From Mobula hypostoma (lineage: Eukaryota): 64,000 bases of DNA. Under the pieces are notes generated by a model. It had not been told where the DNA came from. It did no database searches and worked only from the letters and a program-made list of their open reading frames with translations. Positions 2,593 through 64,000 of the stretch are shown here, piece by piece. Each line of letters starts with the position of its first letter. The stretch's first letter is position 1. Where the stretch lies: assembly GCF_963921235.1 (NCBI RefSeq), contig NC_086108.1, forward strand, positions 69,566,001 to 69,630,000, given 5' to 3'. The translations under genes and the position numbers were made by a program.

Positions 2593-2619
2593 GCACCTGA
2601 TACGTTAGGGAAAGAAGCT

Positions 2620-5065: not shown

Positions 5066-5502
5066 TCGAAATTTGGCTTTCACTGAATGAATTCAAATGA
5101 CAAATATTATATAACCTTCTTTAAATATCATGGTAATCTCAATTTCCCTCATCAGTCAAGGAGTCCTGGTTTTGATTTCCCTGCTTTTCCCTCTTATGGG
5201 AATGTATTGGGCTTGTTTCAGCTCCTCATGAATGGCCTATTGCTCTGTCAAACTTTAATTTTATATCATGAAAATCATAAAAACTGCAGATATTAGCAAT
5301 CTGAAATAAATCAGAAAATGCTGCAAACATCTGCTAATTTAGTTGCCATCTGTGTAACGAGAAATAGAATTAACTTTTCAGGAGCAAGATTCTTCATCAG
5401 TTCTTATGAAGGGTTCCAGACCTGAAATATTGACTCTCATCCAAAGTTGTTCAGCATGAGTGCAAAAGCAAGCCTTTCATCTCAAAAGTTTGGGAACCCT
5501 TG

Positions 5503-6276: not shown

Positions 6277-6678
6277 CTTGCTTTAGAAAACAAACTCAAT
6301 TTTTAATAATTTTCATTGCAAAAACCATCAAATCCCCTGTGAAAACATACTGTTTTTAACCATTGTAGGGACTTGAGAAAAAGAATGTGCTATTTGGCTT
6401 ACAAAGATATTTTGCATTATTGATACTATCACCTCTTGCTGACACTTTCAGACAAACAGATAATTAAACATACTGCATTTCTAAAACAACTTACAGCAGA
6501 TAATTACGAATTAGAACATTAACCTCCAGTATATTTACACAGTAATTGCTATTTTCGAATTACCTTTTATGGCAAAACATAGTATAATGTTGAATTTCCA
6601 TAATGTTTGATATCATCCTGCCCAGTTCAATATCTTTTGTACTCAAAGATATGCATACAGTATCAAAAATGTGTTTAC

Positions 6679-40039: not shown

Positions 40040-40447
40040 CTGGAAGAAAAAAATCAGACAGTGAGTATTCTGAGCTGAAGAGAGAAATTCACAGTGCATT
40101 TTTAAAAATCTATTTTTTTGTACTGTCTGATGCCACCAAAAATATAATGTTCTTGATTAATAAAAGGTCTGAAATGCGATATTTGAATTTGGAGAGCCAT
40201 CACAGCTAGGTTCAAAAACAGTAAACAGAAAACCATAGATGCATGAACAAACTTCACACTGGTCACTGATCTATGTCAAACCAGCAATTCTGATTGACAT
40301 GTACCAAGGCCAAATGTACGCAAAACAATCTACAAAGCTACAATCCCATAAGTCAACTCAGGCCAAGTACTGAGCATTCCAATCAGAAAATAACCCAAGG
40401 CTCACAATAACAAAACGTTTAACACCTCCTCCTGTCACTCACTGAGT

Positions 40448-41125
40448 GATCCCAGCATTTTATGCTTTTATTTCAGTTTTCAATGGCGGTGCGCCTTGGT
40501 ATAGTATTCACATTAACGCACCTGCATCCTTTAAATCACTTCTTTTTCCCTGTTACACAGCATTGAGGTCAATGACGAGGTTGGAAGAGAGATGGAAAGG
40601 GTGGCGCTTGTGGGCTGGGTGTCTGGGAATTAGGTTCCCAGTGAGCTGGAAGAAAGTGAGGGAACGGGGACTGCAGCACGTTGAGAGTGAGGGAACAGGG
40701 AGTGCAGCACGTTGAGAGTGAGGGAACCGGGACTGCAACACGTTGAGAGTGAGGGAACCGGGACTGCAGCACGTTGAGAGTGAGGGGATCCCAGCATTTT
40801 ATGCTTTTATTTCAGTTTTCAATGGCGGTGCGCCTTAGTATAGTATTCACATTAACGCACCTGCATCCTTTAAATCACTTCTTTTTCCCTGTTACACAGC
40901 ATTGAGGTCAATGACGAGGTTGGAAGGGAGATGGAAAGGGTGGCGCTTGTGGGCTGGGTGTCTGGGAATTAGGTTCCCAGTGAGCTGGAAGAAAGTGAGG
41001 GAACGGGGACTGCAGCACGTTGAGAGTGAGGGAACAGGGAGTGCAGCACGTTGAGAGTGAGGGAACCGGGACTGCAACACGTTGAGAGTGAGGGAACCGG
41101 GACTGCAGGACGTTGACAGTGAGGG
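40448..41125. repeat. 339-bp direct duplication: ~205 bp unique flank plus ~4 satellite units (copy starts 40448 and 40787)
   Basis: gatcccagcattttatgc...gagctggaagaaagtgagggaac occurs twice with only ~2 differences and is followed by the same order of unit variants. Confidence 0.97.
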
Positions 41126-44100
41126 AACAGGGACTGCAGCGCGTTGAGAGTGAGGGAACGGGGACTGCAGCGCGTTGAGAGTGAGGGAACGGGGAGTGCA
41201 GCGCATTGAGAGTGAGGGAACGGGGAGTGCAGCACGTTGAGAGTGAGGGATCGGGGACTGCAGCACGTTGAGAGGGAGGGAACCGGGATTGCAGCGCGTT
41301 GAGAGTGAGGAAACGGGGACTGCAGCGCGTTGAGAGGGAGGGAACGGGGACTGCAGCGCGTTGAGAGTGAGGGATCGGGGACTGCAGCGCGTTGAGAGTG
41401 AGGGATCGGGGACTGCAGCGCGTTGAGAGTGAGGGATCGGGGACTGCAGCGCGTTGAGAGTGAGGGAACGGGGACTGCAGCGCATTGAGAGTGAGGGAAC
41501 GGGGACTGCAGCGCGTTGACAGTGAGGGAACGTGGAGTGCAGCGCGTTGAGAGTGAGGGAACGGGGACTGCAGCGCGTTGAGAGTGAGGGAACGGGGACT
41601 GCAGCGCGTTGAGAGTGAGGGAACGGGGACTGCAGCGCGTTGAGAGTGAGGGAACGGGGACTGCAGCTCGTTGAGAGTGAGGGAACGGGGACTGCAGCGC
41701 GTTGAGAGTGAGGGAACGGGGACTGCAGCGCGTTGAGAGTGAGGGAACGGGGACTGCAGCGCCTTGAGAGTGAGGGAACGGGGACTGCAGCACGTTGAGA
41801 GTGAGGGAACCGGGACTGCAGCACGTTGAGAGTGAGGGAACGGGGACTGCAGCACGTTGAGAGTGAGGGAACCGTAACTGCAGCACGTTGAGAGTAAGGG
41901 AACGGGGACTGCAGCACGTTGAGAGTGAGGGAACCGGGACTGCAGCACGTTGAGAGTGAGGGAACGGGGACTGCAGCACGTTGAGAGTGAGGGAACCGGC
42001 ATTGCAGCACGTTGAGAGTGAGGGAACGGGGACTGCAGCGCGTTGAGAGTGAGGGAACGGGGACTGCAGCGCGTTGAGAGTGAGGGAACGGGGACTGCAG
42101 CACGTTGAGAGTGAGGGAACGGGGACTGCAGCACGTTGAGAGTGAGGGAACCGGGGACAGCAGCAGGTGGAGAGTGAGGGAACGGGGACTGCAGCACGTT
42201 GAGAGTGAGCGAACGGGGACTGCAGCACGTTGAGATTGAGGGAACGGGGACTGCAGCACGTTGAGAGTGAGGGAACGGGGACTGCAGCACGTTGAGAGTG
42301 AGGGAACGGGGACTGCAGCACGTTGAGAGTGAGGGAACGGGGACTGCAGCACGTTGAGAGTGAGGGAACGGGGACTGCAGCACGTTGAGAGTGAGGGAAC
42401 GGGGACTGCAGCGCGTTGAGAGTGAGGGAACGGGGAGTGCAGCGCGTTGAGAGTGAGGGAACGGGGAGTGCAGCACGTTGAGAGTGAGGGAAACGGGGAC
42501 TGCAGCACATTGAGAGTGAGGGAACAGCGAGTGCAGCACGTTGAGAGTGAGGGATCGGGGACTGCAGCACGTTGAGAGGGAGGGAACCGGGATTGCAGCG
42601 CGTTGAGAGTGAGGAAACGGGGACTGCAGCACGTTGAGAGGGAGGGAACCGGGATTGCAGCGCGTTGAGAGTGAGGAAACGGGGACTGCAGCGCATTGAG
42701 AGGGAGGGAACGGGGACTGCAGCGCGTTGAGAGGGAGGGAACGGGGACTGCAGCGCGTTGAGAGGGAGGGATCGGGGACTGCAGCGCGTTGAGAGTGAGG
42801 GATCGGGGACTGCAGCGCGTTGAGAGTGAGGGATCGGGGACTGCAGCGCGTTGAGAGTGAGGGAACGGGGACTGCAGCGCGTTGAGAGTGAGGGAACGGG
42901 GACTGCAGCGCGTTGAGAGTGAGGGAAGGGGACGGGGACTGCAGCGCGTTGAGAGTGAGGGAACGGGGACTGCAGCGCGTTGAGTGAGGGAACGGGGACT
43001 GCAGCGCGTTGAGAGTGAGGGAACGGGGACTGCAGCGCGTTGAGAGTGAGGGAACGGGGACTGCAGCGCGTTGAGAGTGAGGGAACGGGGACTGCAGCGC
43101 GTTGAGAGTGAGGGAACCGGGACTGCAGCACGATGAGAGTGAGGGAACGGGGACTGCAGCACGTTGAGAGTGAGGGAACCGGGGACAGCAGCAGGTGGAG
43201 AGTGAGGGAACGGGGACTGCAGCACGTTGAGAGTGAGCGAACGGGGACTGCAGCACGTTGAGATTGAGGGAACGGGGACTGCAGCACGTTGAGATTGAGG
43301 GAACGGGGACTGCAGCACGTTGAGAGTGAGGGAACGGGGACTGCAGCACGTTGAGAGTGAGGGAACGGGGACTGCAGCACGTTGAGTGTGAGGGAACGGG
43401 GACTGCAGCACGTTGAGAGTGAGGGAACGGGGACTGCAGCGCGTTGAGAGTGAGGGAACGGGGAGTGCAGCGCGTTGAGAGTGAGGGAACGGGGAGTGCA
43501 GCGCGTTGAGAGTGAGGGAAACGGGGACTGCAGCACGTTGAGAGTGAGGGAACAGCGAGTGCAGCACGTTGAGAGTGAGGGATCGGTGACTGCAGCACGT
43601 TGAGAGGGAGGGAACCGGGATTGCAGCGCGTTGAGAGTGAGGAAACGGGGACTGCAGCGCGTTGAGAGTGAGGGAACGGGGACTGCAGCGCGTTGAGAGG
43701 GAGGGAACGGGGACTGCAGCGCGTTGAGAGTGAGGGAACGGGGACTGCAGCGCGTTGAGAGTGAGGGATCGGGGACTGCAGCGCGTTGAGAGTGAGGGAT
43801 CGGGGACTGCAGCGCGTTGAGAGTGAGGGAACGGGGACTGCAGCGCGTTGAGAGTGAGGGAACGGGGACTGCAGCGCGTTGAGAGTGAGGGAACGGGGAC
43901 TGCAGCGCGTTGAGAGTGAGGGAACGGGGACTGCAGCGCGTTGAGAGTGAGGGAACGGGGACTGCAGCGCGTTGAGAGTGAGGGAACGGGGACTGCAGCG
44001 CGTTGAGAGTGAGGGAACGGGGACTGCAGCGCGTTGAGTGAGGGAACGGGGACTGCAGCGCGTTGAGAGTGAGGGAACGGGGACTGCAGCGCGTTGAGAG

Positions 44101-47100
44101 TGAGGGAACGGGGACTGCAGCGCGTTGAGAGTGAGGGAACGGGGACTGCAGCGCGTTGAGAGTGAGGGAACGGGGACTGCAGCGCGTTGAGAGTGAGGGA
44201 ACGGGGACTGCAGCGCGTTGAGAGTGAGGGAACGGGGACTGCAGCGCGTTGAGAGTGAGGGAACGGGGACTGCAGCGCGTTGAGAGTGAGGGAATGGGGA
44301 CTGCAGCGCGTTGAGAGTGAGGGAACGGGGAGTGCAGCACGTTGAGAGTGAGGGAAACGGGGACTGCAGCACATTGAGAGTGAGGGAACAGCGACTGCAG
44401 CACGTTGAGAGTGAGGGATCGGGGACTGCAGCACGTTGAGAGGGAGGGAACCGGGATTGCAGCGCGTTGAGAGTGAGGAAACGGGGACTGCAGCGCGTTG
44501 AGAGGGAGGGAACGGGGACTGCAGCGCGTTGAGAGTCAGGGATCAGGGACTGCAGCGCATTGAGAGTGAGGGATCGGGGACTGCAGCGCGTTGAGAGTGA
44601 GGGATCGGGGACTGCAGCGCGTTGAGAGTGAGGGAACGGTGACTGCAGCGCGTTGAGAGTGAGGAAACGGGGACTGCAGCGCGTTGAGAGTGAGGGAACG
44701 GGGACTGCAGCGCGTTGAGAGTGAGGGAACGGGGACTGCAGCGCGTTGAGAGTGAGGGAACGGGGACTGCAGCGCGTTGAGAGTGAGGGAACGGGGACTG
44801 CAGCGCGTTGAGAGTGAGGGAACGGGGACTGCAGCGCATTCAGAGTGAGGGAACGGGGACTGCAGCGCGTTGAGAGTGAGGGAACGGGGACTGCAGCGCG
44901 TTGAGAGTGAGGGAACGGGGACTGCAGCGCGTTGAGAGTGAGGGAACGGGGACTGCAGCGCGTTGAGAGTGAGGGAACGGGGACTGCAGCGCGTTGAGAG
45001 TGAGGGAACGGGGACTGCAGCGCGTTGAGAGTGAGGGAACGGGGACTGCAGCGCGTTGAGAGTGAGGGAACGGGGACTGCAGCGCGTTGAGAGTGAGGGA
45101 ACGGGGACTGCAGCGCGTTGAGAGTGAGGGAACGGGGACTGCAGCGCGTTGAGAGTGAGGGAACGGGGACTGCAGCGCGTTGAGAGTGAGGGAACGGGGA
45201 CTGCAGCGCGTTGAGAGTGAGGGAAAGGGGACTGCAGCGCGTTGAGAGTGAGGGAACGGGGACTGCAGCGCGTTGAGAGTGAGGGAACGGGGACTGCAGC
45301 GCGTTGAGAGTGAGGGAACGGGGACTGCAGCGCGTTGAGAGTGAGGGAACGGGGACTGCAGCGCGTTGAGAGTGAGGGAACGGGGACTGCAGCGCGTTGA
45401 GAGTGAGGGAACGGGGACTGCAGCGCGTTGAGAGTGAGGGAACGGGGACTGCAGCGCGTTGAGAGTGAGGGAACGGGGACTGCAGCGCGTTGAGAGTGAG
45501 GGAACGGGGACTGCAGCGCGTTGAGAGTGAGGGAACGGGGACTGCAGCGCGTTGAGAGTGAGGGAACCGGGACTGCAGCACGTTGAGAGTGAGGGAACGG
45601 GGACTGCAGCACCTTGAGAGTGAGGGAACCGGGACTGCAGCACGTTGAGAGTAAGGGAACGGGGACTGCAGCACGTTGAGAGTGAGGGAACCGGGACTGC
45701 AGCACGTTGAGAGTGAGGGAACGGGGACTGCAGCACGTTGAGAGTGAGGGAACCGGCATTGCAGCACGTTGAGAGTGAGGGAACGGGGACTGCAGCGCGT
45801 TGAGAGTGAGGGAACGGGGACTGCAGCGCGTTGAGAGTGAGGGAACCGGGACTGCAGCACGATGAGAGTGAGGGAACGGGGACTGCAGCACGTTGAGAGT
45901 GAGGGAACCGGGGACTGCAGCAGGTGGAGAGTGAGGGAACGGGGACTGCAGCACGTTGAGAGTGAGCAAACGGGGACTGCAGCACGTTGAGATTGAGGGA
46001 ACGGGGACTGCAGCACGTTGAGATTGAGGGAACGGGGACTGCAGCACGTTGAGAGTGAGGGAACGGGGACTGCAGCACGTTGAGAGTGAGGGAACGGGGA
46101 CTGCAGCACGTTGAGAGTGAGGGAACGGGGACTGCAGCACGTTGAGAGTGTGGGAACCTGGATTACCGGAACCGGGACTGCAGCACGTTGAGAGTGAGGG
46201 AACGGGGACTGCAGCACATTGAGAGTGAGGGAACCGGGATTGCAGCACATTGAGAGTGAGGGAACCAGGAGTGCAGCACGTTGAGAGTGAGGGAACCGGG
46301 ACTGCAGCACGTTGAGAGTGAGGGAACGGGGACTGCAGCACGTTGAGAGTGAGGGAACGGGGACTGCAGCACGTTGAGAGTGAGGGAACCGGGACTGCAG
46401 CACGTTGAGAGTGAGGGAACGTGGACTGCAGCACATTGAGAGTGAGGGAACCGGGATTGCAGCACGTTGAGAGTGAGGGATCCGGGAGTGTAGCACGTTG
46501 AGAGTGAGGGAACCGGGACTGCAGCACATTGAGAGTGAGGGAACCGGGACTGCAGCACATTGAGAGTGAGGGAACCGGGAGTGTAGCACGTTGAGAGTGA
46601 GGGAACCAGGAGTGCAGCACGTTGAGAGTGAGGGAACGGGGACTGCAGCACGTTGAGAGTGAGGGAACGGGGACTGCAGCACGTTGAGAGTGTGGGAACC
46701 TGGATTACAGGAACCGGGACTGCAGCACATTGAGAGTGAGGGAACCGGAACTGCAGCACGTTGAGAGTGAGGGAACGGGGATTGCAGCACGTTGAGAGTG
46801 AGGGAACAGGGACTGCAGCACGTTGAGAGTGAGGGAACGGGGACTGCAGCACGTTGAGAGTGAGGAAACGGGGACTGCAGCACGTTGAGAGTGAGGGAAC
46901 CGGGACTGCAGCACGTTGAGAGTGAGGGAACGGGGACTGCAGCACGTTGAGAGTGAGGGAACGGGGACTGCAGCACGTTGAGAGTGAGGAAACGGGGACT
47001 GCAGCACGTTGAGAGTGAGGAAACGGGGACTGCAGCACGTTGAGAGTGAGGGAACCGGGACTGCAGCACGTTGAGACTGAGGGAACCGGGACTGTAGCAC

Positions 47101-50100
47101 GTTGAGAGTGAGGGAACGGGGACTGCAGCACATTGAGAGTGAGGAAACGGGGACTGCAGCACGTTGAGAGTGAGGGAACCGGGACTGCAGCACGTTGAGA
47201 GTGAGGGAACCGGGAGTGCAGCACGTTGAGACTGAGGGGACCGGGAGTGCAGCACGTTGAGACTGAGGGAACCGGGATTGCAGCACGTTGAGAGTGAGGG
47301 ATCCGGGAGTGTAGCACGTTGAGAGTGAGGAAACCGGGACTGCAGCACGTTGAGAGTGAGGGAACCGGGAGTGCAGCACGTTGAGAGTGAGGGAACCTGG
47401 ACTGCAGCACATTGAGAGTCAGGGAACCGGGACTGCAGCACATTGAGAGTGAGGGAACCGGGAGTGTAGCACGTTGAGAGTGAGGGAACCGGGAGTGCAG
47501 CACGTTGAGACTGAGGGAACCGGGAGTGCAGCACGTTGAGACTGAGGGAACGGGGACTGCAGCACGTTGAGAGTGAGGGAACCGGGAGTGCAGCACGTTG
47601 AGAGTGAGGGAACGGGGACTGCAGCACGTTGAGAGTGAGGGAACCGGGACTGCAGCACATTGAGACTGAGGGAACCGGGAGTGCAGCACGTTGAGACTGA
47701 GGGAACCGGGAGTGCAGCACGTTGAGACTGAGGGAACGGGGACTGCAGCACGTTGAGAGTGAGGGAACGGGGACTGCAGCACGTTCAGAGTGAGGGAACC
47801 GGGAGTGCAGCACGTTGAGACTGAGGGAACCGGGAGTGCAGCACGTTGAGAGTGAGGGAACCGGGAGTGCAGCACGTTGAGAGTGAGGGAACCGGGACTG
47901 CAGCACATTGAGAGTGAGGGAACCGGGAGTGCAGCACGTTGAGAGTGAGGGAACCGGGACTGCAGCACGTTGAGAGTGAGGGAACCGGGACTGCAGCACA
48001 TTGAGAGTGAGGGAACCGGGACTGCAGCACATTGAGAGTGAGGGAACCGGGAGTGTAGCACGTTGAGAGTGAGGGAACCGGGAGTGCAGCACGTTGAGAC
48101 TGAGGGAACCGGGAGTGCAGCACGTTGAGACTGAGGGAACCGGGAGTGCAGCACGTTGAGACTGAGGGAACCGGGAGTGCAGCACGTTGAGAGTGAGGGA
48201 ACCGGGACTGCAGCACGTTGAGAGTGAGGGAACGGGGACTGCAGCACGTTGAGAGTGAGGGAACCGGGAGTGCAGCACGTTGAGACTGAGGGAACCGGGA
48301 GTGCAGCACGTTGAGAGTGAGGGAACCGGGATTGCAGCACGTTGAGAGTGAGGGAACGGGGACTGCAGCACGTTGAGAGTGAGGGAACGGGGACTGCAGC
48401 ACGTTGAGAGTGTGGGAACCTGTATTACAGGAACCGGGACTGCAGCACATTGAGAGTGAGGGAACCGGGACTGCAGCACGTTGAGAGTGAGGGAACCGGG
48501 ACTGCAGCACGTTGAGAGTGAGGGAACCGGGACTGCAGCACGTTGAGAGTGAGGGAACCGGGACTGCAGCACGTTGAGAGTGAGGGAACAGGGACTGCAG
48601 CACGTTGAGAGTGAGGGAACAGGGACTGCAGCACGTTGAGAGTGAGGGAACGGGGACTGCAGCGCGTTGAGAGTGAGGGAACGGGGACTGCAGCACGTTG
48701 AGAGTGAGGGAAACGGGGACTGCAGCACATTGAGAGTGAGGGAACAGCGAGTGCAGCACGTTGAGAGTGAGGGATCGGGGACTGCAGCACGTTGAGAGGG
48801 AGGGAACCGGGATTGCAGCGCGTTGAGAGTGAGGGAACGGGGACTGCAGCACGTTGAGAGTGAGGGAACCGGGATTGCAGCGCGTTGAGAGTGAGGAAAC
48901 GGGGACTGCAGCGCATTGAGAGGGAGGGAACGGGGACTGCAGCGCGTTGAGAGGGAGGGAACGGGGACTGCAGCGCGTTGAGAGTGAGGGATCGGGGACT
49001 GCAGCGCGTTGAGAGTGAGGGAACGGGGACTGCAGCGCGTTGAGAGTGAGGGAACGGGGACTGCAGCGCGTTGAGAGTGAGGGAACGGGGACTGCAGCGC
49101 GTTGAGAGTGAGGGAACGGGGACTGCAGCGCGTTGAGAGTGAGGGAACGGGGACTGCAGCGCGTTGAGAGTGAGGGAACGGGGACTGCAGCGCGTTGAGT
49201 GAGGGAACGGGGACTGCAGCGCGTTGAGAGTGAGGGAACGGGGACTGCAGCGCGTTGAGAGTGAGGGAACGGGGACTGCAGCGCGTTGAGAGTGAGGGAA
49301 CGGGGACTGCAGCGCGTTGAGAGTGAGGGAACCGGGACTGCAGCACGTTGAGAGTGAGGGAACGGGGACTGCAGCACGTTGAGAGTGAGGGAACCGGGGA
49401 CTGCAGCAGGTGGAGAGTGAGGGAACGGGGACTGCAGCACGTTGAGAGTGAGCGAACGGGGACTGCAGCACGTTGAGATTGAGGGAACGGGGACTGCAGC
49501 ACGTTGAGAGTGAGGGAACGGGGACTGCAGCACGTTGAGAGTGAGGGAACGGGGACTGCAGCACGTTGAGAGTGAGGGAACGGGGACTGCAGCACGTTGA
49601 GAGTGAGGGAACGGGGACTGCAGCGCGTTGAGAGTGAGGGAACGGGGACTGCAGCACGTTGAGAGTGAGGGAACGGGGACTGCAGCACGTTGAGAGTGAG
49701 GGAAACGGGGACTGCAGCACGTTGAGAGTGAGGGAACAGGGACTGCAGCACGTTGAGAGTGAGGGAACGGGGACTGCAGCACGTTGAGAGGGAGGGAACC
49801 GGGATTGCAGCGCGTTGAGAGTGAGGAAACGGGGACTGCAGCGCGTTGAGAGGGAGGGAACGGGGACTGCAGCGCGTTGAGAGTGAGGGAACGGGGACTG
49901 CAGCGCGTTGAGAGTGAGGGAACGGGGACTGCAGCGCGTTGAGAGTGAGGGATCGGGGACTGCAGCGCGTTGAGAGTGAGGGAACGGGGACTGCAGCGCG
50001 TTGAGAGTGAGGGAACGGGGACTGCAGCGCGTTGAGAGTGAGGGAACGGGGACTGCAGCGCGTTGAGAGTGAGGGAACGGGGACTGCAGCGCGTTGAGAG

Positions 50101-53100
50101 TGAGGGAACGGGGACTGCAGCGCGTTGAGAGTGAGGGAACGGGGACTGCAGCGCGTTGAGAGTGAGGGAACGGGGACTGCAGCGCGTTGAGTGAGGGAAC
50201 GGGGACTGCAGCGCGTTGAGAGTGAGGGAACGGGGACTGCAGCGCGTTGAGAGTGAGGGAACGGGGACTGCAGCGCGTTGAGAGTGAGGGAACGGGGACT
50301 GCAGCGCGTTGAGAGTGAGGGAACGGGGACTGCAGCGCGTTGAGAGTGAGGGAACGGGGACTGCAGCGCGTTGAGAGTGAGGGAACGGGGACTGCAGCGC
50401 GTTGAGAGTGAGGGAACGGGGACTGCAGCGCGTTGAGAGTGAGGGAACGGGGACTGCAGCGCGTTGAGAGTGAGGGAACGGGGAGTGCAGCACGTTGAGA
50501 GTGAGGGAAACGGGGACTGCAGCACATTGAGAGTGAGGGAACAGCGAGTGCAGCACGTTGAGAGTGAGGGATCGGGGACTGCAGCACGTTGAGAGGGAGG
50601 GAACCGGGACTGCAGCGCGTTGAGAGTGAGGAAACGGGGACTGCAGCGCGTTGAGAGGGAGGGAACGGGGACTGCAGCGCGTTGAGAGTCAGGGATCAGG
50701 GACTGCAGCGCATTGAGAGTGAGGGATCGGGGACTGCAGCGCGTTGAGAGTGAGGGATCGGGGACTGCAGCGCGTTGACAGTGAGGGAACGGTGACTGCA
50801 GCGCGTTGAGAGTGAGGAAACGGGGACTGCAGCGCGTTGAGAGTGAGGGAACGGGGACTGCAGCGCGTTGAGAGTGAGGGAACGGGGACTGCAGCGCGTT
50901 GAGAGTGAGGGAACGGGGACTGCAGCGCGTTGAGAGTGAGGGAACGGGGACTGCAGCGCGTTGAGAGTGAGGGAACGGGGACTGCAGCGCATTCAGAGTG
51001 AGGGAACGGGGACTGCAGCGCGTTGAGAGTGAGGGAACGGGGACTGCAGCGCGTTGAGAGTGAGGGAACGGGGACTGCAGCGCGTTGAGAGTGAGGGAAC
51101 GGGGACTGCAGCGCGTTGAGAGTGAGGGAACGGGGACTGCAGCACGTTGAGAGTGAGGGAACGGGGACTGCAGCACGTTGAGAGTGAGGGAACGGGGACT
51201 GCAGCACGTTGAGAGTGAGGGAACGGGGACTGCAGCGCGTTGAGAGTGAGGGAACGGGGACTGCAGCGCGTTGAGAGTGAGGGAACGGGGACTGCAGCGC
51301 GTTGAGAGTGAGGGAACGGGGACTGCAGCGCGTTGAGAGTGAGGGAAAGGGGACTGCAGCGCGTTGAGAGTGAGGGAACGGGGACTGCAGCGCGTTGAGA
51401 GTGAGGGAACGGGGACTGCAGCGCGTTGAGAGTGAGGGAACGGGGACTGCAGCGCGTTGAGAGTGAGGGAACGGGGACTGCAGCGCGTTGAGAGTGAGGG
51501 AACGGGGACTGCAGCGCGTTGAGAGTGAGGGAACGGGGACTGCAGCGCGTTGAGAGTGAGGGAACGGGGACTGCAGCGCGTTGAGAGTGAGGGAACGGGG
51601 ACTGCAGCACGTTGAGAGTGAGGGAACGGGGACTGCAGCGCGTTGAGAGTGAGGGAACGGGGACTGCAGCACGTTGAGAGTGAGGGAACCGGGAATGCAG
51701 CGCGTTGAGAGTGAGGGAACGGGGACTGCAGCACGTTGAGAGTGAGGGAACCGGGACTGCAGCACGTTGAGAGTAAGGGAACGGGGACTGCAGCACGTTG
51801 AGAGTGAGGGAACCGGGACTGCAGCACGTTGAGAGTGAGGGAACGGGGACTGCAGCACGTTGAGAGTGAGGGAACCGGGATTGCAGCACGTTGAGAGTGA
51901 GGGAACGGGGACTGCAGCGCGTTGAGAGTGAGGGAACGGGGACTGCAGCACGTTGAGAGTGAGGGAACCGGGACTGCAGCACGTTGAGAGTGAGGGAACG
52001 GGGACTGCAGCACGTTGAGAGTGAGGGAACCGGGGACTGCAGCACGTGGAGAGTGAGGGAACGGGGACTGCAGCACGTTGAGAGTGAGCGAACGGGGACT
52101 GCAGCACGTTGAGATTGAGGGAACGGGGACTGCAGCACGTTGAGAGTGAGGGAACGGGGACTGCAGCACGTTGAGAGTGAGGGAACGGGGACTGCAGCAC
52201 GTTGAGAGTGAGGGAACGGGGACTGCAGCACGTTGAGAGTGAGGGAACGGGGACTGCAGCACGTTGAGAGTGAGGGAACCGGGATTGCAGCACGTTGAGA
52301 GTGAGGGAACGGGGACTGCAGCACGTTGAGAGTGAGGGAACGGGGACTGCAGCACATTGAGAGTGAGGGAACCGGGATTGCAGCACATTGAGAGTGAGGG
52401 AACCAGGAGTGCAGCACGTTGAGAGTGAGGGAACCGGGACTGCAGCACGTTGAGAGTGAGGGAACGGGGACTGCAGCACGTTGAGAGTGAGGGAACGGGG
52501 ACTGCAGCACGTTGAGAGTGAGGGAACCGGGACTGCAGCACGTTGAGAGTGAGGGAACGTGGACTGCAGCACATTGAGAGTGAGGGAACCGGGATTGCAG
52601 CACGTTGAGAGTGAGGGATCCGGGAGTGTAGCACGTTGAGAGTGAGGGAACCGGGACTGCAGCACATTGAGAGTGAGGGAACCGGGACTGCAGCACATTG
52701 AGAGTGAGGGAACCGGGAGTGTAGCACGTTGAGAGTGAGGGAACCGGGAGTGCAGCACGTTGAGAGTGAGGGAACGGGGACTGCAGCACGTTGAGAGTGA
52801 GGGAACGGGGACTGCAGCACGTTGAGAGTGTGGGAACCTGGATTACAGGAACCGGGACTGCAGCACATTGAGAGTGAGGGAACCGGGACTGCAGCACGTT
52901 GAGAGTGAGGGAACGGGGACTGCAGCACGTTGAGAGTGAGGGAACAGGGACTGCAGCACGTTGAGAGTGAGGGAACGGGGACTGCAGCACGTTGAGAGTG
53001 AGGAAACGGGGACTGCAGCACGTTGAGAGTGAGGGAACCGGGACTGCAGCACGTTGAGAGTGAGGGAACGGGGACTGCAGCACGTTGAGAGTGAGGGAAC

Positions 53101-56100
53101 GGGGACTGCAGCACGTTGAGAGTGAGGAAACGGGGACTGCAGCACGTTGAGAGTGAGGAAACGGGGACTGCAGCACGTTGAGAGTGAGGGAACCGGGACT
53201 GCAGCACGTTGAGACTGAGGGAACCGGGACTGTAGCACGTTGAGAGTGAGGGAACGGGGACTGCAGCACATTGAGAGTGAGGAAACGGGGACTGCAGCAC
53301 GTTGAGAGTGAGGGAACCGGGACTGCAGCACGTTGAGAGTGAGGGAACCGGGAGTGCAGCACGTTGAGACTGAGGGGACCGGGAGTGCAGCACGTTGAGA
53401 CTGAGGGAACCGGGATTGCAGCACGTTGAGAGTGAGGGATCCGGGAGTGTAGCACGTTGAGAGTGAGGGAACCGGGACTGCAGCACGTTGAGAGTGAGGG
53501 AACCGGGAGTGCAGCACGTTGAGAGTGAGGGAACCTGGACTGCAGCACATTGAGAGTGAGGGAACCGGGACTGCAGCACATTGAGAGTGAGGGAACCGGG
53601 AGTGCAGCACGTTGAGAGTGAGGGAACCGGGAGTGCAGCACGTTGAGACTGAGGGAACCGGGAGTGCAGCACGTTGAGACTGAGGGAACGGGGACTGCAG
53701 CACGTTGAGAGTGAGGGAACCGGGAGTGCAGCACGTTGAGAGTGAGGGAACGGGGACTGCAGCACGTTGAGAGTGAGGGAACCGGGACTGCAGCACATTG
53801 AGAGTGAGGGAACCGGGACTGCAGCACGTTGAGAGTGAGGGAACCGGGAGTGCAGCACGTTGAGAGTGAGGGAACGGGGACTGCAGCACGTTGAGAGTGA
53901 GGGAACGGGGACTGCAGCACGTTGAGAGTGAGGGAACCGGGAGTGCAGCACGTTGAGACTGAGGGAACCGGGATTGCAGCACGTTGAGAGTGAGGGATCC
54001 GGGAGTGTAGCACGTTGAGAGTGAGGGAACCGGGACTGCAGCACATTGAGAGTGAGGGAACCGGGAGTGCAGCACGTTGAGAGTGAGGGAACCTGGACTG
54101 CAGCACATTGAGAGTGAGGGAACCGGGACTGCAGCACATTGAGAGTGAGGGAACCGGGACTGCAGCACATTGAGAGTGAGGGAACCGGGAGTGCAGCACG
54201 TTGAGAGTGAGGGAACCGGGAGTGCAGCACGTTGAGAGTGAGGGAACCGGGAGTGCAGCACGTTGAGACTGAGGGAACCGGGAGTGCAGCACGTTGAGAC
54301 TGAGGGAACGGGGACTGCAGCACGTTGAGAGTGAGGGAACGGGGACTGCAGCACGTTGAGAGTGAGGGAACCGGGAGTGCAGCACGTTGAGACTGAGGGA
54401 ACCGGGAGTGCAGCACGTTGAGAGTGAGGGAACCGGGATTGCAGCACGTTGAGAGTGAGGGAACGGGGACTGCAGCACGTTGAGAGTGAGGGAACGGGGA
54501 CTGCAGCACGTTGAGAGTGAGGGAACGGGGACTGCAGCACGTTGAGAGTGAGGGAACGGGGACTGCAGCACGTTGAGAGTGAGGGAACCGGGACTGCAGC
54601 ACGTTGAGAGTGAGGGAACCGGGACTGCAGCACGTTGAGAGTGAGGGAACCGGGACTGCAGCACGTTGAGAGTGAGGGAACCGGGACTGCAGCACGTTGA
54701 GAGTGAGGGAACAGGGACTGCAGCACGTTGAGAGTGAGGGAACGGGGACTGCAGCACGTTGAGAGTGAGGGAACGGGGACTGCAGCACGTTGAGAGTGAG
54801 GGAACGGGGATTGCAGCACGTTGAGAGTGAGGGAACAGGGACTGCAGCACGTTGAGAGTGAGGGAACCGGGAGTGTAGCACGTTGAGAGTGAGGGAACCA
54901 GGAGTGCAGCACGTTGAGAGTGAGGGAACCGGGACTGCAGCACGTTGAGAGTGAGGGAACGGGGACTGCAGCACGTTGAGAGTGAGGGAACGGGGACTGC
55001 AGCACGTTGAGAGTGAGGGAACCGGGACTGCAGCACGTTGAGACTGAGGGAACCGGGAGTGCAGCACGTTAAGAGTGAGGGAACCGGGACTGCAGCACGT
55101 TGAGAGTGAGGGAACGGGGACTGCAGCACGTTGAGAGTGAGGGAACGGGGACTGCAGCACGTGGAGAGTGAGGGAACCGGGATTGCAGCACGTTGAGAGT
55201 GAGGGAACCGGGATTGCAGCACGTTGAGAGTCACGGGACAGGGAGTGCAGCACGTTGACAGTGAGGGGACCGGGACTGCAGCCCGTTGAGAGTGAGGGAA
55301 CAGTGACTGCAGCACGTTGAGAGTGAGGGAACGGGGACTGCAGCACGTTGAGAGTGAGGGAACCGGCAGTGCAGCACGTTGAGAGTGAGGGAACCGGGGA
55401 CTGCAGCACGTTGAGAGTGAGGGAACGGGGACTGCAGCACGTTGAGAGTGAGGGAACGGGGACTGCAGCACGTTGAGAGTGAGGGATCGGGGACTGCAGC
55501 ACGTTGAGAGTGAGGGAACGGAGACTGCAGCACGTTGAGAGTGAGGGAACGGGGACTGCAGCACGTTGAGAGTGAGGGAACGGGGACTGCAGCACGTTGA
55601 GAGTGAGGGAACGGGGACTGCAGCACGTTGAGAGTGAGGGAACGGGGACTGCAGCACGTTGAGAGTGAGGGAACGGGGACTGCAGCACGTTGAGAGTGAG
55701 GGAACGGGGACTGCAGCACGTTGAGAGTGAGGGAACGGGGACTGCAGCACGTTGAGAGTGTGGGAACCTGGATTACCGGAACCGGGACTGCAGCACGTTG
55801 AGAGTGAGGGAACGGGGACTGCAGCACGTTGAGAGTGAGGGAACCGGGACTGCAGCACATTGAGAGTGAGGGAACCGGGACTGCAGCACGTTGAGAGTGA
55901 GGGAACCGGGACTGCAGCACGTTGAGAGTGAGGGAACGGGGACTGCAGCACGTTGAGAGTGAGGGAACGGGGACTGCAGCACGTTGAGAGTGAGGGAACC
56001 GGGACTGCAGCACGTTGAGAGTGAGGGAACGTGGACTGCAGCACATTGAGAGTGAGGGAACCGGGACTGCAGCACGTTGAGAGTGAGGGAACCGGGAGTG

Positions 56101-59100
56101 TAGCACGTTGAGAGTGAGGGAACCGGGACTGCAGCACATTGAGAGTGAGGGAACCGGGACTGCAGCACATTGAGAGTGAGGGAACCGGGAGTGTAGCACG
56201 TTGAGAGTGAGGGAACCAGGAGTGCAGCACGTTGAGACTGAGGGAACCGGGAGTGCAGCACGTTGAGACTGAGGGAACGGGGACTGCAGCACGTTGAGAG
56301 TGAGGGAACGGGGACTGCAGCACGTTGAGAGTGAGGGAACCGGGAGTGCAGCACGTTGAGACTGAGGGAACCGGGGACTGCAGCACGTCGAGAGTGAGGG
56401 AACCGACACTGCAGCACGTCGAGAGTGAGGGAACCGGGGACTGCAGCACGTCGAGAGTGAGGGAACCGGGGACTGCAGCACATCGAGAGTGAGGGAACGG
56501 GGACTGCAGCACGTTGAGAGTGAGGGAACGGGGACTGCAGCACGTTGAGAGTGAGCGAACGGGGACTGCAGCACGTTGAGAGTGAGGGAACGGGGACTGC
56601 AGCACGTTGAGAGTGAGGGAACCGGGACTGCAGCACGTTGAGAGTGAGGGAACGGGGACTGCAGCACGGTGAGAGTGAGGGAACGGGGACTGCAGCACGG
56701 TGAGAGTGAGGGAACGGGGACTGCAGCACGGTGAGAGTGAGGGAACCGGGACTGCAGCGCGTCGAGAGTGAGGGAACCGGGACTGCAGCGCGTCGAGAGA
56801 GGGGGAACCGGGACTGCAGCGCGTCGAGAGAGGGGGAACCGGGACTGCAGCGCGTCGAGAGAGGGGGAACCGGGACTGCAGCGCGTCGAGAGAGGGGGAA
56901 CCGGGACTGCAGCGCGTCGAGAGTGAGGGAACGGGGACTGCAGCGCGTGGAGAGTGAGGGAACGGGGACTGCAGCACGTTGAGAGTGAGGGAACCGGGAC
57001 TGCAGCGCGTTGAGAGTGAGGGAACGGGGACTGCAGCACGTTGAGAGTGAGGGAACGGGGACTGCAGCACGTTGAGAGTGAGGGAACGGGGACTGCAGCG
57101 CGTTGAGAGTGAGGGAACGGGGACTGCAGCGCGTTGAGAGTGAGGGAACGGGGACTGCAGCGCGTTGAGAGTGAGGGAACGGGGACTGCAGCGCGTTGAG
57201 AGTGAGGGAACCGGGACTGCAGCGCGTTGAGAGTGAGGGAACGGGGACTGCAGCACGTTGAGAGTGAGGGAACCGGGGACTGCAGCACGTGGAGAGTGAG
57301 GGAACGGGGACTGCAGCACGTTGAGAGTGAGCGAACGGGGACTGCAGCACGTTGAGATTGAGGGAACGGGGACTGCAGCACGTTGAGATTGAGGGAACGG
57401 GGACTGCAGCACGTTGAGATTGAGGGAACGGGGACTGCAGCACGTTGAGAGTGAGGGAACGGGGACTGCAGCACGTTGAGAGTGAGGGAACGGGGACTGC
57501 AGCACGTTGAGAGTGAGGGAACGGGGACTGCAGCACGTTGAGAGTGAGGGAACGGGGACTGCAGCACGTTGAGAGTGAGGGAACGGGGAGTGCAGCACGT
57601 TGAGAGTGAGGGAACAGGGAGTGCAGCACGTTGAGAGTGAGGGAACGGGGACTGCAGCACGTTGAGAGTGAGGGAACCGGGAGTNNNNNNNNNNNNNNNN
57701 NNNNNNNNNNNNNNNNNNNNNNNNNNNNNNNNNNNNNNNNNNNNNNNNNNNNNNNNNNNNNNNNNNNNNNNNNNNNNNNNNNNNNNNNNNNNNNNNNNNN
57801 NNNNNNNNNNNNNNNNNNNNNNNNNNNNNNNNNNNNNNNNNNNNNNNNNNNNNNNNNNNNNNNNNNNNNNNNNNNNNNNNNNNNCAGCACGTTGAGAGTG
57901 AGGGAACGGGGACTGCAGCACGTTGAGAGTGAGGGAACCGGGACTGCAGCACATTGAGAGTGAGGGAACCGGGACTGCAGCACGTTGAGAGTGAGGGAAC
58001 CGGGACTGCAGCACGTTGAGAGTGAGGGAACCGGGACTGCAGCACGTTGAGAGTGAGGGAACCGGGACTGCAGCACGTTGAGAGTGAGGGAACCGGGACT
58101 GCAGCGCGTTGAGAGTGAGTGAATGGGGACTGCAGCACAGTGAGAGTGAGGGAACGGGGACTGCAGTACGGTGAGAGTGAGGGAACCGGGAGTGCAGCAC
58201 GTTGAGAGTGAGGGAACCGGGACTGCAGCACATTGAGAGTGAGGGAACTGGGAGTGCAGCACGTTGAGAGTGAGGGAACCTGGACTGCAGCACATTGAGA
58301 GTGAGGGAACCGGGATTGCAGCACATTGAGAGTGAGGGAACCGGGACTGCAGCACATTGAGAGTGAGGGAACCGTGAGTGTAGCACGTTGAGAGTGAGGG
58401 AACCGGGAGTGCAGCACGTTGAGACTGAGGGAACCGGGAGTGCAGCACGTTGAGACTGAGGGAACGGGGACTGCAGCACGTTGAGAGTGAGGGAACGGGG
58501 ACTGCAGCACGTTGAGAGTGAGGGAACCGGGAGTGCAGCACGTTGAGACTGAGGGAACCGGGACTGCAGCACGTTGAGAGTGAGGGAACCGGGACTGCAG
58601 CACGTTGAGAGTGAGGGAACGGGGACTGCAGCACGTTGAGAGTGAGGGAACCGGGACTGCAGCACGTTGAGAGTGAGGGAACCGGGACTGCAGCACGTTG
58701 AGAGTGAGGGAACAGGGACTGCAGCACGTTGACAGTGAGGGGACCGGGACTGCAGCCCGTTGAGAGTGAGGGAACAGTGACTGCAGCACGTTGAGAGTGA
58801 GGGAACGGGGACTGCAGCGCGTTGAGAATGAGGAAACCTGGAGTGCAGCACGTTGAGAGTGAGGGAACGGGGACTGCAGCACGTTGAGAGTGAGGGAACG
58901 GGGACTGCAGCACGTTGAGAGTGAGGGAACAGGGACTGCAGCACGTTGAGAGTGAGGGAACCGGGACTGCAGCACGTTGAGAGTGAGGGAACGGGGACTG
59001 CAGCACGTTGAGAGTGAGGGAACGGGGACTGCAGCACGTTGAGAGTGAGGGAACGGGGACTGCAGCACGTTGAGTGTGAGGGAACGGGGACTGCAGCACG

Positions 59101-61646
59101 TTGAGAGTGAGCGAACGGGGACTGCAGCACGTTGAGAGTGAGAGACCGGGACTGCAGCACGTTGAGAGTGAGGGAACGGGGACTGCAGCACGTTGAGAGT
59201 GAGGGAACCGGGACTGCAGCGCGTTGAGAGTGAGGGAACCGGGACTGCAGCACGTCGAGAGTGAGGGAACCGGGACTGCAGCACGTCGAGAGTGAGGGAA
59301 CCGGGACTGCAGCGCGTCGAGAGTGAAGGAACCGGGACTGCAACGCATTGAGAGTGAAGGAACGGGGACTGCAGCACGTGGAGAGTGAGGGAACGGGGAT
59401 TGCAGCGCGTTGAGAGTGAGGGAACGGGAACTGCAGCGCGTTGAGAGTGAGGGAACGGGGACTGCAGCGCGTTGAGAGTGAGGGAACCGGGACTGCAGCG
59501 CGTTGAGAGTGAGGGAACGGGGACTGCAGCGCGTTGAGAGTGAGGGAACGGGGACTGCAGCGCGTTGAGAGTGAGGGAACGGGGACTGCAGCGCGTTGAG
59601 AGTGAGGGAACGGGGACTGCAGCGCGTTGAGAGTGAGGGAACGGGGACTGCAGCACGTCGAGAGTGAGGGAACCGACACTGCAGCACGTCGAGAGTGAGG
59701 GAACCGGGGACTGCAGCACGTCGAGAGTGAGGGAACCGGGGACTGCAGCACATCGAGAGTGAGGGAACGGGGACTGCAGCACGTTGAGAGTGAGGGAACG
59801 GGGACTGCAGCACGTCGAGAGTGAGGGAACCGACACTGCAGCACGTCGAGAGTGAGGGAACCGGGGACTGCAGCACGTCGAGAGTGAGGGAACCGGGGAC
59901 TGCAGCACATCGAGAGTGAGGGAACGGGGACTGCAGCACGTTGAGAGTGAGGGAACGGGGACTGCAGCGCGTTGAGAGTGAGGGAACGGGGACTGCAGCA
60001 CGTTGAGAGTGAGGGAACGGGGACTGCAGCACATTGAGAGTGAGGGAACCGGGACTGCAGCACGTTGAGAGTGAGGGAACCGGGAGTGCAGCACGTTGAG
60101 AGTGAGGGAACGGGGACTGCAGCACGTTGAGAGTGAGGGAACGGGGACTGCAGCACGTTGAGAGTGAGGGAACGGGGACTGCAGCACGTTGAGAGTGAGG
60201 GAACCTGTATTACAGGAACCGGGACTGCAGCACATTGAGAGTGAGGGAACCGGGACTGCAGCACGTTGAGAGTGAGGGAACCGGGACTGCAGCACGTTGA
60301 GAGTGAGGGAACCGGGACTGCAGCACGTTGAGAGTGAGGGAACCGGGACTGCAGCACGTTGAGAGTGAGGGAACAGGGACTGCAGCACGTTGAGAGTGAG
60401 GGAACCGGGACTGCAGCACGTTGAGAGTGAGGGAACGGGGACTGCAGCACGTTGAGAGTGAGGGAACCGGGACTGCAGCACGTTGAGAGTGAGGGAACCG
60501 GGACTGCAGCACGTTGAGAGTGAGGGAACGGGGACTGCAGCACGTTGAGAGTGAGCGAACGGGGACTGAAGCACGTTGAGAGTGAGCGAACGGGGACTGC
60601 AGCACGTTGAGATTGAGGGAACGGGGACTGCAGCACGTTGAAATTGAGGGAACGGGGACTGCAGCACATTGAGAGTGAGGGAACGGGGACTGCAGCACGT
60701 TGAGAGTGAGGGAACGGGGACTGCAGCACGTTGAGAGTGAGGGAACGGGGACTGCAGCGCGTTGAGAGTGAGGGAACGGGGACTGCAGCGCGTTGAGAGT
60801 GAGGGAACGGGGACTGCAGCGCGTTGAGAGTGAGGGAACCGGGACTGCAGCGCGTTGAGAGTGAGGGAACCGGGACTGCAGCACGTTGAGAGTGAGGGAA
60901 CCGGGACTGCAGCACGTTGGGAGTGAGCGAACGGGGACTGCAGCACGTTGGGAGTGAGCGAACGGGGACTGCAGCACGTTGGGAGTGAGCGAACGGGGAC
61001 TGCAGCACGTTGAGAGTGAGGGAACCGGGACTGCAGCACGTTGAGAGTGAGGGAACCGGGACTGCAGCACGTTGAGAGTGAGCGAACGGGGACTGCAGCA
61101 CGTTGAGAGTGAGCGAACGGGGACTGCAGCACGTTGAGAGTGAGGGAACGGGGACTGCAGCACGTTGAGAGTGAGGGAACGGGGACTGCAGCGCGTTGAG
61201 AGTGAGGGAACGGGGACTGCAGCGCGTTGAGAGTGAGGGAACGGGGACTGCAGCGCGTTGAGAGTGAGGGAACGGGGACTGCAGCGCGTTGAGAGTGAGG
61301 GAACGGGGACTGCAGCGCGTTGAGAGTGAGGGAACGGGGACTGAAGCACGTTGAGAGTGAGGGAACGGGGACTGCAGCGCGTTGAGAGTGAGGGAACGGG
61401 GACTGCAGCACGTTGAGAGTGAGGGAACCGGGACTGCAGCACGTTGAGACTGAGGGAACCGGGACTGCAGCACGTTGAGAGTGAGGGAACCGGGAGTGCA
61501 GCACGTTGAGAGTGAGGGAACCGGGAGTGCAGTACGTTGAGACTGAGGGAACCGGGACTGCAGCACGTTGAAAGTGAGGGAACCGGGACTGCAACACGTT
61601 GAGAGTGAGGGAACGGGGACTGCAGCACGTTGAAAGTGAGGGAACC
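40992..61646. repeat. Tandem array (mini/macrosatellite) of a 31-bp unit GGGAAC(G/C)GGGACTGCAGC(A/G)CGTTGAGAGTGA, about 660 copies
   Basis: Unit read directly from the sequence; one PstI site (CTGCAG) in most units; copy number is approximate (length/31) and the array spans an N gap. Confidence 0.99.
57685..57884. other. Assembly gap (200 N) inside the array
   Basis: Run of n; the round size suggests a placeholder for a gap of unknown length. Confidence 0.99.
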
Positions 61647-61759
61647 AAGACCTCAGTGAGTTAAAATGGAATGCCGGAACATCACCTGGAGAGCTGGGTA
61701 TCCACAGGGATTTCTGAACAATCGAATACTATTATTGGAGTTTCATTATACTGAAAGTT

Positions 61760-62010
61760 CAAGGTGGTGATATCAAAAACAAGGATATACAAGTTTAAAC
61801 TGAGAGGATGGGAGTTTTAAAGGGGATTTGAGGAGCAAATTTAACAGAAAGTGGTGATGAGTGGAGCTCATTGCCAAAGGTAGTGACAGAATGAGATGCA
61901 ATCACTACTTAAATAGACAAGACATACAAGGATGTGGAACTGATGCAGGGGAATGGGATCAGTGTAGATTGGAAAAGAGGTTAGCATGGAGATTATATAC
62001 TGATGGGCTC
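61760..62010 (+). mobile_element. Degenerate CR1 3' fragment
   Basis: tttaaaaggggatttgagg...acagaaagtggtg..tggagctcattgcca pattern, as in the other CR1 ends. Confidence 0.55.
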
Positions 62011-62789
62011 ACTTTGCGGTTAAACTATAACTGTGACGACAAAAGGAGGGCACTTGGTCCTTCAAGCCACTGTCAACTCTTTAAAAACTCATTTAACCCC
62101 ATGGATCAGATTGAAAGTTCTAATGCAGTGGATTAAATACATCAATTTGAATTTTGAACTCTTCCACAATAATGAGAGAGAAGTTAGAGAATTTTGAAAC
62201 TGGTTACTATCAGAATTTAGGAACTCATTTGGAACCAAAGTCACTTGCAGATTTGAAATTTTGATCAACACTAAAAAGAAAGAAAATGGAGAGCTGAAAC
62301 AACAGCTGTAAAGCTGTTCAATTACTTACACATTGTGCATTTCCTTAAACCCTACATAACCACTTCGAAATCCGGCAGAAACTGACAAACAGCTTGAGAG
62401 CTAGACAGCAAGCAAACAGTTCACAACCTGATACAGTATGTGAAAACAAGTGGCAGCAGAGGTTTGTAGCTTAATTGGTAGATGCACAGAATATTTCATT
62501 TATTCCAGAGAAATACTAAACACTCAGAAAGCCTAAGAAATATGTCAGTGCTGGTTACAAACACATGTCTTCTTGAGGGTTTTTAAAAAAACATTCTGGC
62601 TCATGTTAAAACAATATTATCACAACTGGTTTATAACTGCGTTTGCCAAATTAAATTGCTTTAAGTTATGTCTAGGTTCCGTTACAGCCCTGGAGTCCAT
62701 GGATAGTTGGGAATTTTTTCCAACTAGCACCTCATCATCAATTCTAAAATATTCTTGATTATATAAATTGTATAAATCTACTCAATTAA

Positions 62790-63110
62790 CATAGAACACG
62801 GAACAGTACAGCATTGTACAGGCCCTCCAGTTTACAATCCTGTGCTAATCTTTTAACCTATTCCAAATTCAACCCTTCTCTCCTACATAATGCATAACCC
62901 TCCAATATTTCTTTCATCCCTCTGCCTAAAAATCTCTTAATTATCTCCAGTGTATCAGCTTTGACTACCAGCCTCAGTAGTGCTCCCAGGCACTTACCAC
63001 TGTGTAAAAATCCTACTACATACATCTGACCTTTCTCCAGTCACGCGATACAGATGCCCTCTGGTATCAGCTATTGCTATCCTGGGAAAAAAAGGCGCTG
63101 GTCATCCACT
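62790..63110 (-). mobile_element. CR1 3' end
   Basis: catagaaca..gaacagtacagca...caggccct tail seen on the plus strand. Confidence 0.6.
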
Positions 63111-63117
63111 ATATCCA

Positions 63118-63641
63118 CATTCAGTGGCCACTTTAACTAGGTACAGGAGTAGAACCTGGTGTGATTTTCTACTGCTGTAGACTGTCCACTTCGAGGTTTG
63201 ACGTGTTATGAGTTCAGAGATGCTCTTCTGCACACCACTGCTATTACACATAGTTACTTGAGTTACTGTCACCTTTCTGTCAGCTTGAACCAGCCTGGTC
63301 ATTCCTTCTGACCTTTCTCATTAACAAAGCGCTTTTGCCCACAGAACTGCTGCTCATTAGATGTTTTTTTTTAATTTTCACACCATTCTCTGTAAACTCT
63401 AAAGACTGTTGTACATGAAAATCCCAGATCAGCGGTTTCTGAAAGACTCAACCGCCCTGTCATTCCACAGTCAAAGTCACTTAGGTCACATTTCTTCCCC
63501 ATTCTAATATTTGTTCTGACCAGCAACTGAACCTCTTGACCATGTCCACATGCTTTTATGCATTGAGTTGCTGCCACGTGATTGGCTGATTAGATATTTG
63601 CATTAATGAGCTGGTGTACCGAATAGGGTGGCCACTGAGTA
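63118..63641 (-). mobile_element. Internally deleted Tc1-like transposon (TIRs plus N-terminal HTH remnant)
   Basis: TIRs tcagtggccact...ggtaca / tgtacc...gtggccactga; peptides MGKKCDLSDFDCGM..SETADLGFS.TTV.RVYREW and RLVQADRK.TVTQ. Confidence 0.85.
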
Positions 63642-63699
63642 TGTTTTTCAATTCAACCCTATTCTCCTGCCTTCTCCACATAATCTTTGATGCAAGATC

Positions 63700-64000
63700 T
63701 TTACATCACTAGCTGTAGAATTGGGTTTCAATCTCTGCTGCTATCTGTAAGCAGTTTGCACATTCTCCCGCATCAACTTCTCCTGGGTGCTCCAGTTTCT
63801 GCCCACGTTCCGAAGACATATAGAATGAGTTAGGGTTAGTCAGTTATGGACATACGATGTATGTTGACGTCGAAAGCATGGCAACACTTGTGGGCTGCCC
63901 CAGAACAATCCCTAGACTGTGTTGGTTGTTGATGCAAACGATGCATTTCACTGTTTGCTTCAATGTACATTTGACACATAAAGCTAATCTAATCTAATCT
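63700..64000 (+). mobile_element. SINE (V-SINE-like) ending in (AATCT)n
   Basis: tttgcacattctccc...ctcctgggtgctccagtttc core; ataaagct followed by aatct repeats. Confidence 0.6.

Follow-up and report, generated by a model that had tools for sequence, protein, structure and literature searches.

The locus studied here raises two linked questions: how a large GC-rich tandem array came to lie close to a 42-nt exon of a conserved gene in the ray Mobula hypostoma, and whether the gene that carries it is affected. We analysed a 64,000-nt window (the whole stretch of DNA to which all positions below refer) and found, in agreement with the initial annotation, that the host gene is EPS15. Eleven exons (exons 2-12, all on the minus strand) encode 373 stop-free residues; among the eight proteins compared, the RefSeq EPS15 of M. 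hypostoma and that of M. birostris are identical at 373 of 373 positions, and Hypanus sabinus, Pristis and Chiloscyllium share 364, 362 and 335 of these residues, respectively. Exon 2 (39998..40039), whose number assumes one upstream coding exon, has AG/GT ends and is joined to exon 3 (36925..37014) at exact splice sites in an assembled contig from one of the sequencing runs described below (X9). The reading frame is intact through exons 4 (35549-35502), 5 (34737-34642), 6 (33224-33159), 8 (24915-24856), 10 (15033-14879), 11 (9816-9666) and 12 (6764-6679), while exon 7 (29941-29816) matches solved Eps15 EH domains (E ~1e-19) and exon 9 (18128-17928) is a 100% match to EPS15 of M. birostris and H. 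sabinus. A tblastn search to the left of exon 12 (positions 1-6678) found no further EPS15 exon, so either intron 12 extends for 6.7 kb or more or a short exon was overlooked. Introns 2 and 3 contain head-to-head pairs of short repeats (37603-37795 and 36351-36596) with arms of 82-91 nt that are 87-90% complementary, at a depth of ~4 million in run X1; these repeats are apparently SINE-like, and in pre-mRNA the pairs could form double-stranded RNA.

The array lies upstream of exon 2 with respect to EPS15, and its assignment to intron 1 depends on where the first coding exon is. In 16 of the 17 relatives listed, 9-10 residues precede the exon-2 peptide, and in the white shark isoform X2 it is preceded by Met alone. 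When the nine-residue exon-1 peptide of five relatives was searched against the window in six frames, the best scores were 23-24, as compared with self-scores of 45-48. Because these N-terminal residues are absent from the window, coding exon 1 is placed outside it, presumably beyond position 64000, and the array is placed in intron 1 of an otherwise intact gene, which upholds the earlier proposal; a minor first exon giving the start codon alone may lie nearer than 64000. The part of intron 1 within the window (its 3' part, 40040..64000, minus strand) measures at least 24 kb, as compared with 0.8-6.7 kb for introns 2-11.

Tandem Repeats Finder (TRF) reports the main array on the plus strand at 40994-61645, with a period of 31, 662.4 copies, 92% matches and a score of 26426. 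Its consensus unit is AGTGAGGGAACGGGGACTGCAGCACGTTGAG, and the 662 called units occupy at least 20.4 kb. Segmentation gave 540 N-free units to the left of an assembly gap and 122 to its right (20,453 called bases in all), with a mean identity to the consensus of 94.9%; the two commonest variants are present in 129 and 126 copies. The GC content of the array is 61.6%, as compared with 38.6% in the left flank and 39.7% in the right, and its GC skew on the plus strand is +0.45, the EPS15 sense strand being C-rich; the original description, of some 660 near-identical 31-bp units that are G-rich on the plus strand and set in AT-rich DNA, was accurate. CpG observed/expected is 0.94 in the array versus 0.27 outside it. 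PstI would cut the array at 535 sites into 534 fragments, of which 434 are 31-bp monomers. DraI sites stand on either side at 40869 and 61794, and the array itself has none. A recurring pair of deleted units (~18 + 28 bp; at 46147, 46689, 48409-48427, 52827, 55757 and 60194-60212) serves as a marker of related blocks before and after the gap and is the source of the 77- and 108-bp periods also reported by TRF. Some 130 bp to the right of the array, at ~61770-61990 (plus strand), translation points to a degraded stretch that looks like the 3' terminus of a LINE, perhaps of the CR1/L2 type. An intronic minisatellite or VNTR is characterized by units of 10-100 bp that follow one another head to tail over several kilobases, and the term minisatellite suits this array better than satellite family.

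The edges and the internal order of the array retain a record of its growth. At the left edge, a 339-bp segment is present twice on the plus strand: copy 1 (40448..40786) consists of 207 bp of flank followed by 4.3 units recognized by TRF (40655-40786), and copy 2 (40787..41125) continues into the main array, with four differences between the two over 40448-41125. The initial annotation had overlooked these 4.3 units; its statement that the array starts less than 1 kb from exon 2 holds for the main array, 955 bp away, but misses the closer units, the nearest of which is at 616 bp. Also overlooked was a higher-order duplication of ~195 units on the plus strand (copy A, 42483..48610; copy B, 48703..54733). 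In the assembled sequence, these 6.1-kb copies align over 194 unit pairs, of which 145 are identical, with six unit indels and a nucleotide difference of 1.4% as against 8.0% for random unit pairs; the block-duplication score was 255, as compared with at most 19.5 in 30 shuffles. On a smaller scale, 195 adjacent units are identical to each other, where 200 shuffles gave a mean of 57 and a maximum of 73, and we thus conclude that units have also been copied locally. By these shuffled controls, the variant units lie in blocks ordered by duplication and deletion.

The outermost ends are informative about how the array may have begun. A 14-bp repeat, one base off the internal unit junction, stands at the left boundary (40991..41004, and again at 40652-40665; plus strand) and recurs at the right as the incomplete terminal unit (61632..61645, plus strand), which makes it a candidate seed of the array. 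This junction form is confined to positions 40653, 40992, 61571 and 61633, that is, to the two left starts and the last three right units. Models of minisatellite birth involve a short direct repeat and an incomplete terminal unit (PMC3389668), and we infer that the boundary pattern fits them. Under such circumstances, a 31-bp stretch between two 14-bp direct repeats would have been duplicated through slippage or unequal exchange. The later growth, as the variant map shows, proceeded by the copying of single units or small groups of them into neighbouring positions, by duplication of blocks of up to 6.1 kb and by one 339-bp duplication across the left edge, probably through unequal crossing-over or gene conversion.

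Other sequencing runs bear on when this growth took place. The flank sequence is found in 24 listed runs, nine of which contain at least half of the flank words, and four (X1, X5, X9 and X10) were compared over 36800-40716, an interval ending two units into the repeat; X10 is one of 11 small-share runs (X10-X20) and the sole one of these compared. X1 derives from organism A and is possibly the source sample itself, X9 comes from a separate sample of organism A, and organisms B (X5, 1.9% diverged) and C (X10, ~5% diverged) are represented by one run each; all four were compared as assembled contigs, in which contig depth is not the same as copy number. One X1 contig spans exactly 40448-40684 at a depth of 26.2, as compared with a neighbouring 15.6 (1.7x), and because its ends are where the k-mer graph of the window itself predicts them, we conclude that the edge duplication is real in X1. 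At its low depth, X9 shows an uninterrupted contig there. A single X5 contig covers 37798-40681, which takes it past 40448 and to 27 bases inside unit 1; organism B has the same flank-unit junction, without the edge duplication. As a rough proxy, the ratio of last-bin to single-copy depth was 551-671 in X1, 17.5-20.9 in X5 and 3.4-7.1 in X10, placing unit signal ~30-fold lower in B and ~100-fold lower in C at what is the same, shorter site in these relatives. Since organism B, at a divergence of only ~2%, shares the junction but lacks the edge duplication and gives a ~30-fold weaker unit signal, the expansion appears to be recent, and with organism C as outgroup the simpler reading, at one run per species, is that it took place in A. 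Independently of the array, the sequences of organisms B and C are each 20 bases longer than the window at 39241, so a deletion in intron 2 of organism A is probably derived.

These observations lead us to favour a minisatellite born at this locus and recently expanded in one Mobula lineage, but two other accounts of its origin deserve consideration. Its size and structure could be an artefact of assembly, whether from two haplotypes stitched in tandem, giving the 6.1-kb duplication, or from unrelated arrays joined at the gap. The array does contain that gap (200 N, 57685..57884, its true size not given by the assembly), and the A that the window shows at position 40165 is a G in all four compared runs, from three organisms, which makes it either an allele private to the window or a mistake of assembly. 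However, the two sides of the gap, although they share no overlap (best match, 8 of 11 units), are built from the same material: 93 of the 122 post-gap units are exact variants present before it, 14 rare variants are common to both sides, and the unit-order match across it scored 33, as compared with at most 23.8 in 20 shuffles. Because rare variants are shared in this way, we conclude that the gap splits one array, and a join of two unrelated loci is improbable. The 6.1-kb copies, moreover, abut without a gap and differ as described above, an identical boundary repeat stands at both outer ends, and X1 unit depth is compatible with hundreds of units or more; an artefact is highly improbable.

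Alternatively, the array could be one member of a satellite family that is dispersed or occupies several loci, started here by an insertion or by a copy of a transposable element. The depth calibration is compatible with several more loci, in that the X1 depth expected from this array alone ranges from 35 to 2,224, varying with the minimum aligned length, against the 551-671 observed; the range allows for units elsewhere in the genome numbering anywhere from none to ~17 times more. However, by a rough measure, the X1 unit bin is 2.5e-3 of the SINE-like bin in the same run, or ~400-fold below it, which falls short of the very high genomic copy number of an abundant satellite family, and in that sense the term "satellite" used at first was not borne out. 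Taken with the calibration, this deficit makes an abundant satellite unlikely and leaves a few more loci possible. In addition, the left flank forms one unbranched contig up to the first unit in both X1 and X5, organism B has the same junction, matches to flank or unit elsewhere in the window never exceed 23 bp, and a search of an index of other windows returned none that resembles this one. The unbranched flank and the lack of a match within the window argue against origin from a high-copy element, although an old or rare element may still have been the source. Overall, we consider a multi-locus family unlikely and retain birth and expansion at the locus as the preferred account.

If the array lies in intron 1, it should be transcribed with EPS15. 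Among the listed runs with flank sequence none is given as RNA, and X9, a single unstranded run, is taken for RNA by guess; the exon 2-exon 3 join in its contig, however, indicates that spliced RNA is present in it. The X9/X1 ratio was 0.111 for the unit bin, 0.24 for intron 2 and 0.031-0.037 for the SINE-like bins, the last serving as an upper bound on DNA background in X9. Units in X9 are thus ~3-fold above background and at about half the intron-2 level, which fits read-through and, from this one run, supports the earlier expectation that the array is transcribed through as part of the intron, even though the unit signal could include units from other loci or DNA. RNA polymerase II would then read through the array as C-rich intronic RNA that is subsequently spliced out. 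The same run holds a contig that retains the last 541 nt of intron 1 (40040-40580, minus strand) ahead of spliced exons 2 and 3 and contains an ATG (40099-40097, minus strand) in frame with exon 2, 20 codons upstream of it and with no intervening stop; X9 has no cover at 40588, and an exon-1 junction is absent among the pieces listed. The plain explanation is that the assembly graph passes from pre-mRNA to mRNA by way of the 42-nt exon, and the bolder one is a transcript that starts in intron 1.

We also considered what the array sequence itself might do to the gene. Its sense strand contains no AATAAA or ATTAAA and no GTRAG, and it has 585 YAG acceptor-like sites. The acceptor of the commonest unit has 11 pyrimidines in 17 positions, within the range of 7-15 seen in the 11 real EPS15 acceptors, a count that is matched by 25% of 212 ordinary intronic YAG sites, and its tract has 4-6 T as compared with 7-12 T in the same 11 acceptors. 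With acceptor-like motifs and without a consensus donor or poly(A) signal, the array would be largely invisible to RNA processing. The motif RCGTG, a possible link to hypoxia-inducible factor, occurs 390 times in the array, as compared with 0.6 per kb in the flank. A C-rich sense strand disfavours R-loops and R-loop-driven stalling.

Several candidate structures were examined and set aside. Canonical G-quadruplex motifs (loops of up to 12 nt) are absent from the array, 273 appear only when one loop may reach 21 nt, and G4Hunter gave a mean of 0.75, with windows of at least 1.2 making up 1.3% of the array versus 1.2% of the flank. An Rfam search for structured RNA or a ribozyme returned no match over 40000-42500 (E up to 10) and, over 60800-64000, five matches far below the gathering score, none inside the array. 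The unit is a partial palindrome, and folding of the sense strand gave z scores of -6.2 and -6.7 against dinucleotide shuffles; against shuffled units repeated four times, however, these shrank to fractions of 0.04-0.08, and over eight tests with this shuffled-unit null the result was borderline (0.04-0.56), so a special hairpin was rejected. Fold energies of 620-nt slices were -127 to -147 kcal/mol in five array slices versus -137 to -141 in three flank slices. On the minus strand, 4,954 codons (55772-40911) can be read without a stop and with a period of 31 residues, which may mislead gene predictors. This open frame arises from composition, because the unit itself is stop-free; 58% of shuffled units are stop-free as well, three of the eight possible stop-making substitutions occur, as compared with 50 of 93 substitutions overall, and a coding role was rejected.

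One could nevertheless envision a cis-regulatory VNTR, in which a CpG-rich enhancer, or decoy acceptors that slow removal of intron 1, would let allele length tune EPS15 output or isoforms. Its position in a first intron, its CpG content, the density of RCGTG, an acceptor within the real range and the X9 contig in which exons 2 and 3 are joined but 541 nt of intron 1 are retained all lend themselves to this, and the YAG and RCGTG motifs count against regarding the array as a neutral passenger; the intronic VNTR of human CACNA1C (TRACT) offers a precedent (10.1101/311795, 10.1101/2025.09.15.676436). On the other hand, any motif within a repeated unit is multiplied with it, a young homogenised repeat is expected to be high in CpG, the acceptor is T-poor and its pyrimidine count is shared by a quarter of ordinary YAG sites, and the X9 contig can arise as a path from pre-mRNA to mRNA through the short exon. 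A regulatory role is thus possible, but we hold it to be doubtful. A more specific proposal, that in one lineage of manta and devil rays the array has become a novel promoter within EPS15 or an enhancer of the gene, strikes us as decidedly improbable, its direct hints being the 541-nt contig and the lack of an exon-1 junction among the pieces listed. If it were true, transcripts would start in or just downstream of the array and run unspliced into exon 2, the ATG at 40099-40097 could give EPS15 a new N-terminus, output would scale with array length and possibly, via the ~390 RCGTG motifs, with hypoxia, and the locus would be a non-mammalian counterpart of the CACNA1C repeat.

We therefore return to the reading of a locus-born minisatellite, recently expanded in one Mobula lineage within EPS15 intron 1 and tolerated as a passenger, to which we assign a probability of roughly two in three (0.68). 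The existence of the array would be explicable without any effect on EPS15, and it is probably neutral. So understood, it is a clean and datable intronic minisatellite, having grown ~30-fold between ray species 2% apart, in which the seed repeat, the edge duplication and the 6-kb block duplication remain readable. A 20-kb GC-rich insert can thus sit 0.6-1 kb from a 42-nt exon of a conserved gene and be tolerated, and the array is likely to be a hypervariable marker for threatened mobulid rays. Should the array turn out to alter the start site, level or splicing of EPS15, it would represent a repeat-born regulatory novelty outside mammals.

Comparison with known systems places the array in a familiar context. 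In the accessible literature on elasmobranch satellites and tandem repeats, Mobula genomes and EPS15 intron 1, we found no description of the 31-bp unit or of the locus, which repeat libraries and preprint supplements may list; the main text of a mobulid genome preprint (10.64898/2026.10.27.761883) has no mention of EPS15. Stingray and shark genomes are described as having many tandem-repeat-dominated regions of raised GC (10.1101/2025.06.08.657570, PMC10620051), in papers whose available text profiles repeat classes rather than the EPS15 unit or locus. The frequency of such blocks in stingrays, together with human intronic 30-mer arrays of 3-30 kb, does not support the view that an array of this size is unusual. 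Transcription of tandem repeats within an intron would be shared with the Y-loop genes of Drosophila (PMC6508621, PMC11207136); those giant, satellite-filled introns, however, extend over hundreds of kilobases to megabases in genes with a special expression programme, whereas the ray array is ~20 kb as assembled and lies in a general endocytic gene. Among human-specific VNTRs, 287 of 467 are intronic, examples being ABCA7 (25 bp) and WDR7 (69 bp), and changes in length are mainly block duplications and deletions (Course et al. 2021, PMC8327921). The EPS15 array has likewise changed through block duplication, although its duplicated block, read from one assembly, comprises ~195 units as compared with 45-50 in ART1 (PMC8327921).

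In structure, the closest analogue is the 30-mer VNTR in intron 3 of human CACNA1C (TRACT), which exists as one copy in the chimpanzee and spans 3,000 to more than 30,000 bp in humans (Song et al., 10.1101/311795). That repeat has ordered variants, open frames, splice-like motifs and enhancer activity in reporter assays (10.1101/311795), and in vivo it left total RNA unchanged while isoforms shifted (10.1101/2025.09.15.676436). The two arrays are alike in being intronic, in a unit of ~30 bp, in a scale of 3 to 30 kb or more, in having expanded in one lineage at a site that the sister species also has, in variant units arranged in ordered blocks and in a unit with stop-free frames, splice-like motifs and CpG. 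They differ in that the EPS15 unit is GC-rich and skewed, that it lies in a first intron and that the sister species has several units rather than one. The likeness is one of structure and implies no relation of sequence, enhancer and isoform effects being known for TRACT whereas the ray array is known from its sequence. Structurally an intronic minisatellite expanded in one lineage, the EPS15 array adds a further case to an already known class of fast-growing intronic repeats.
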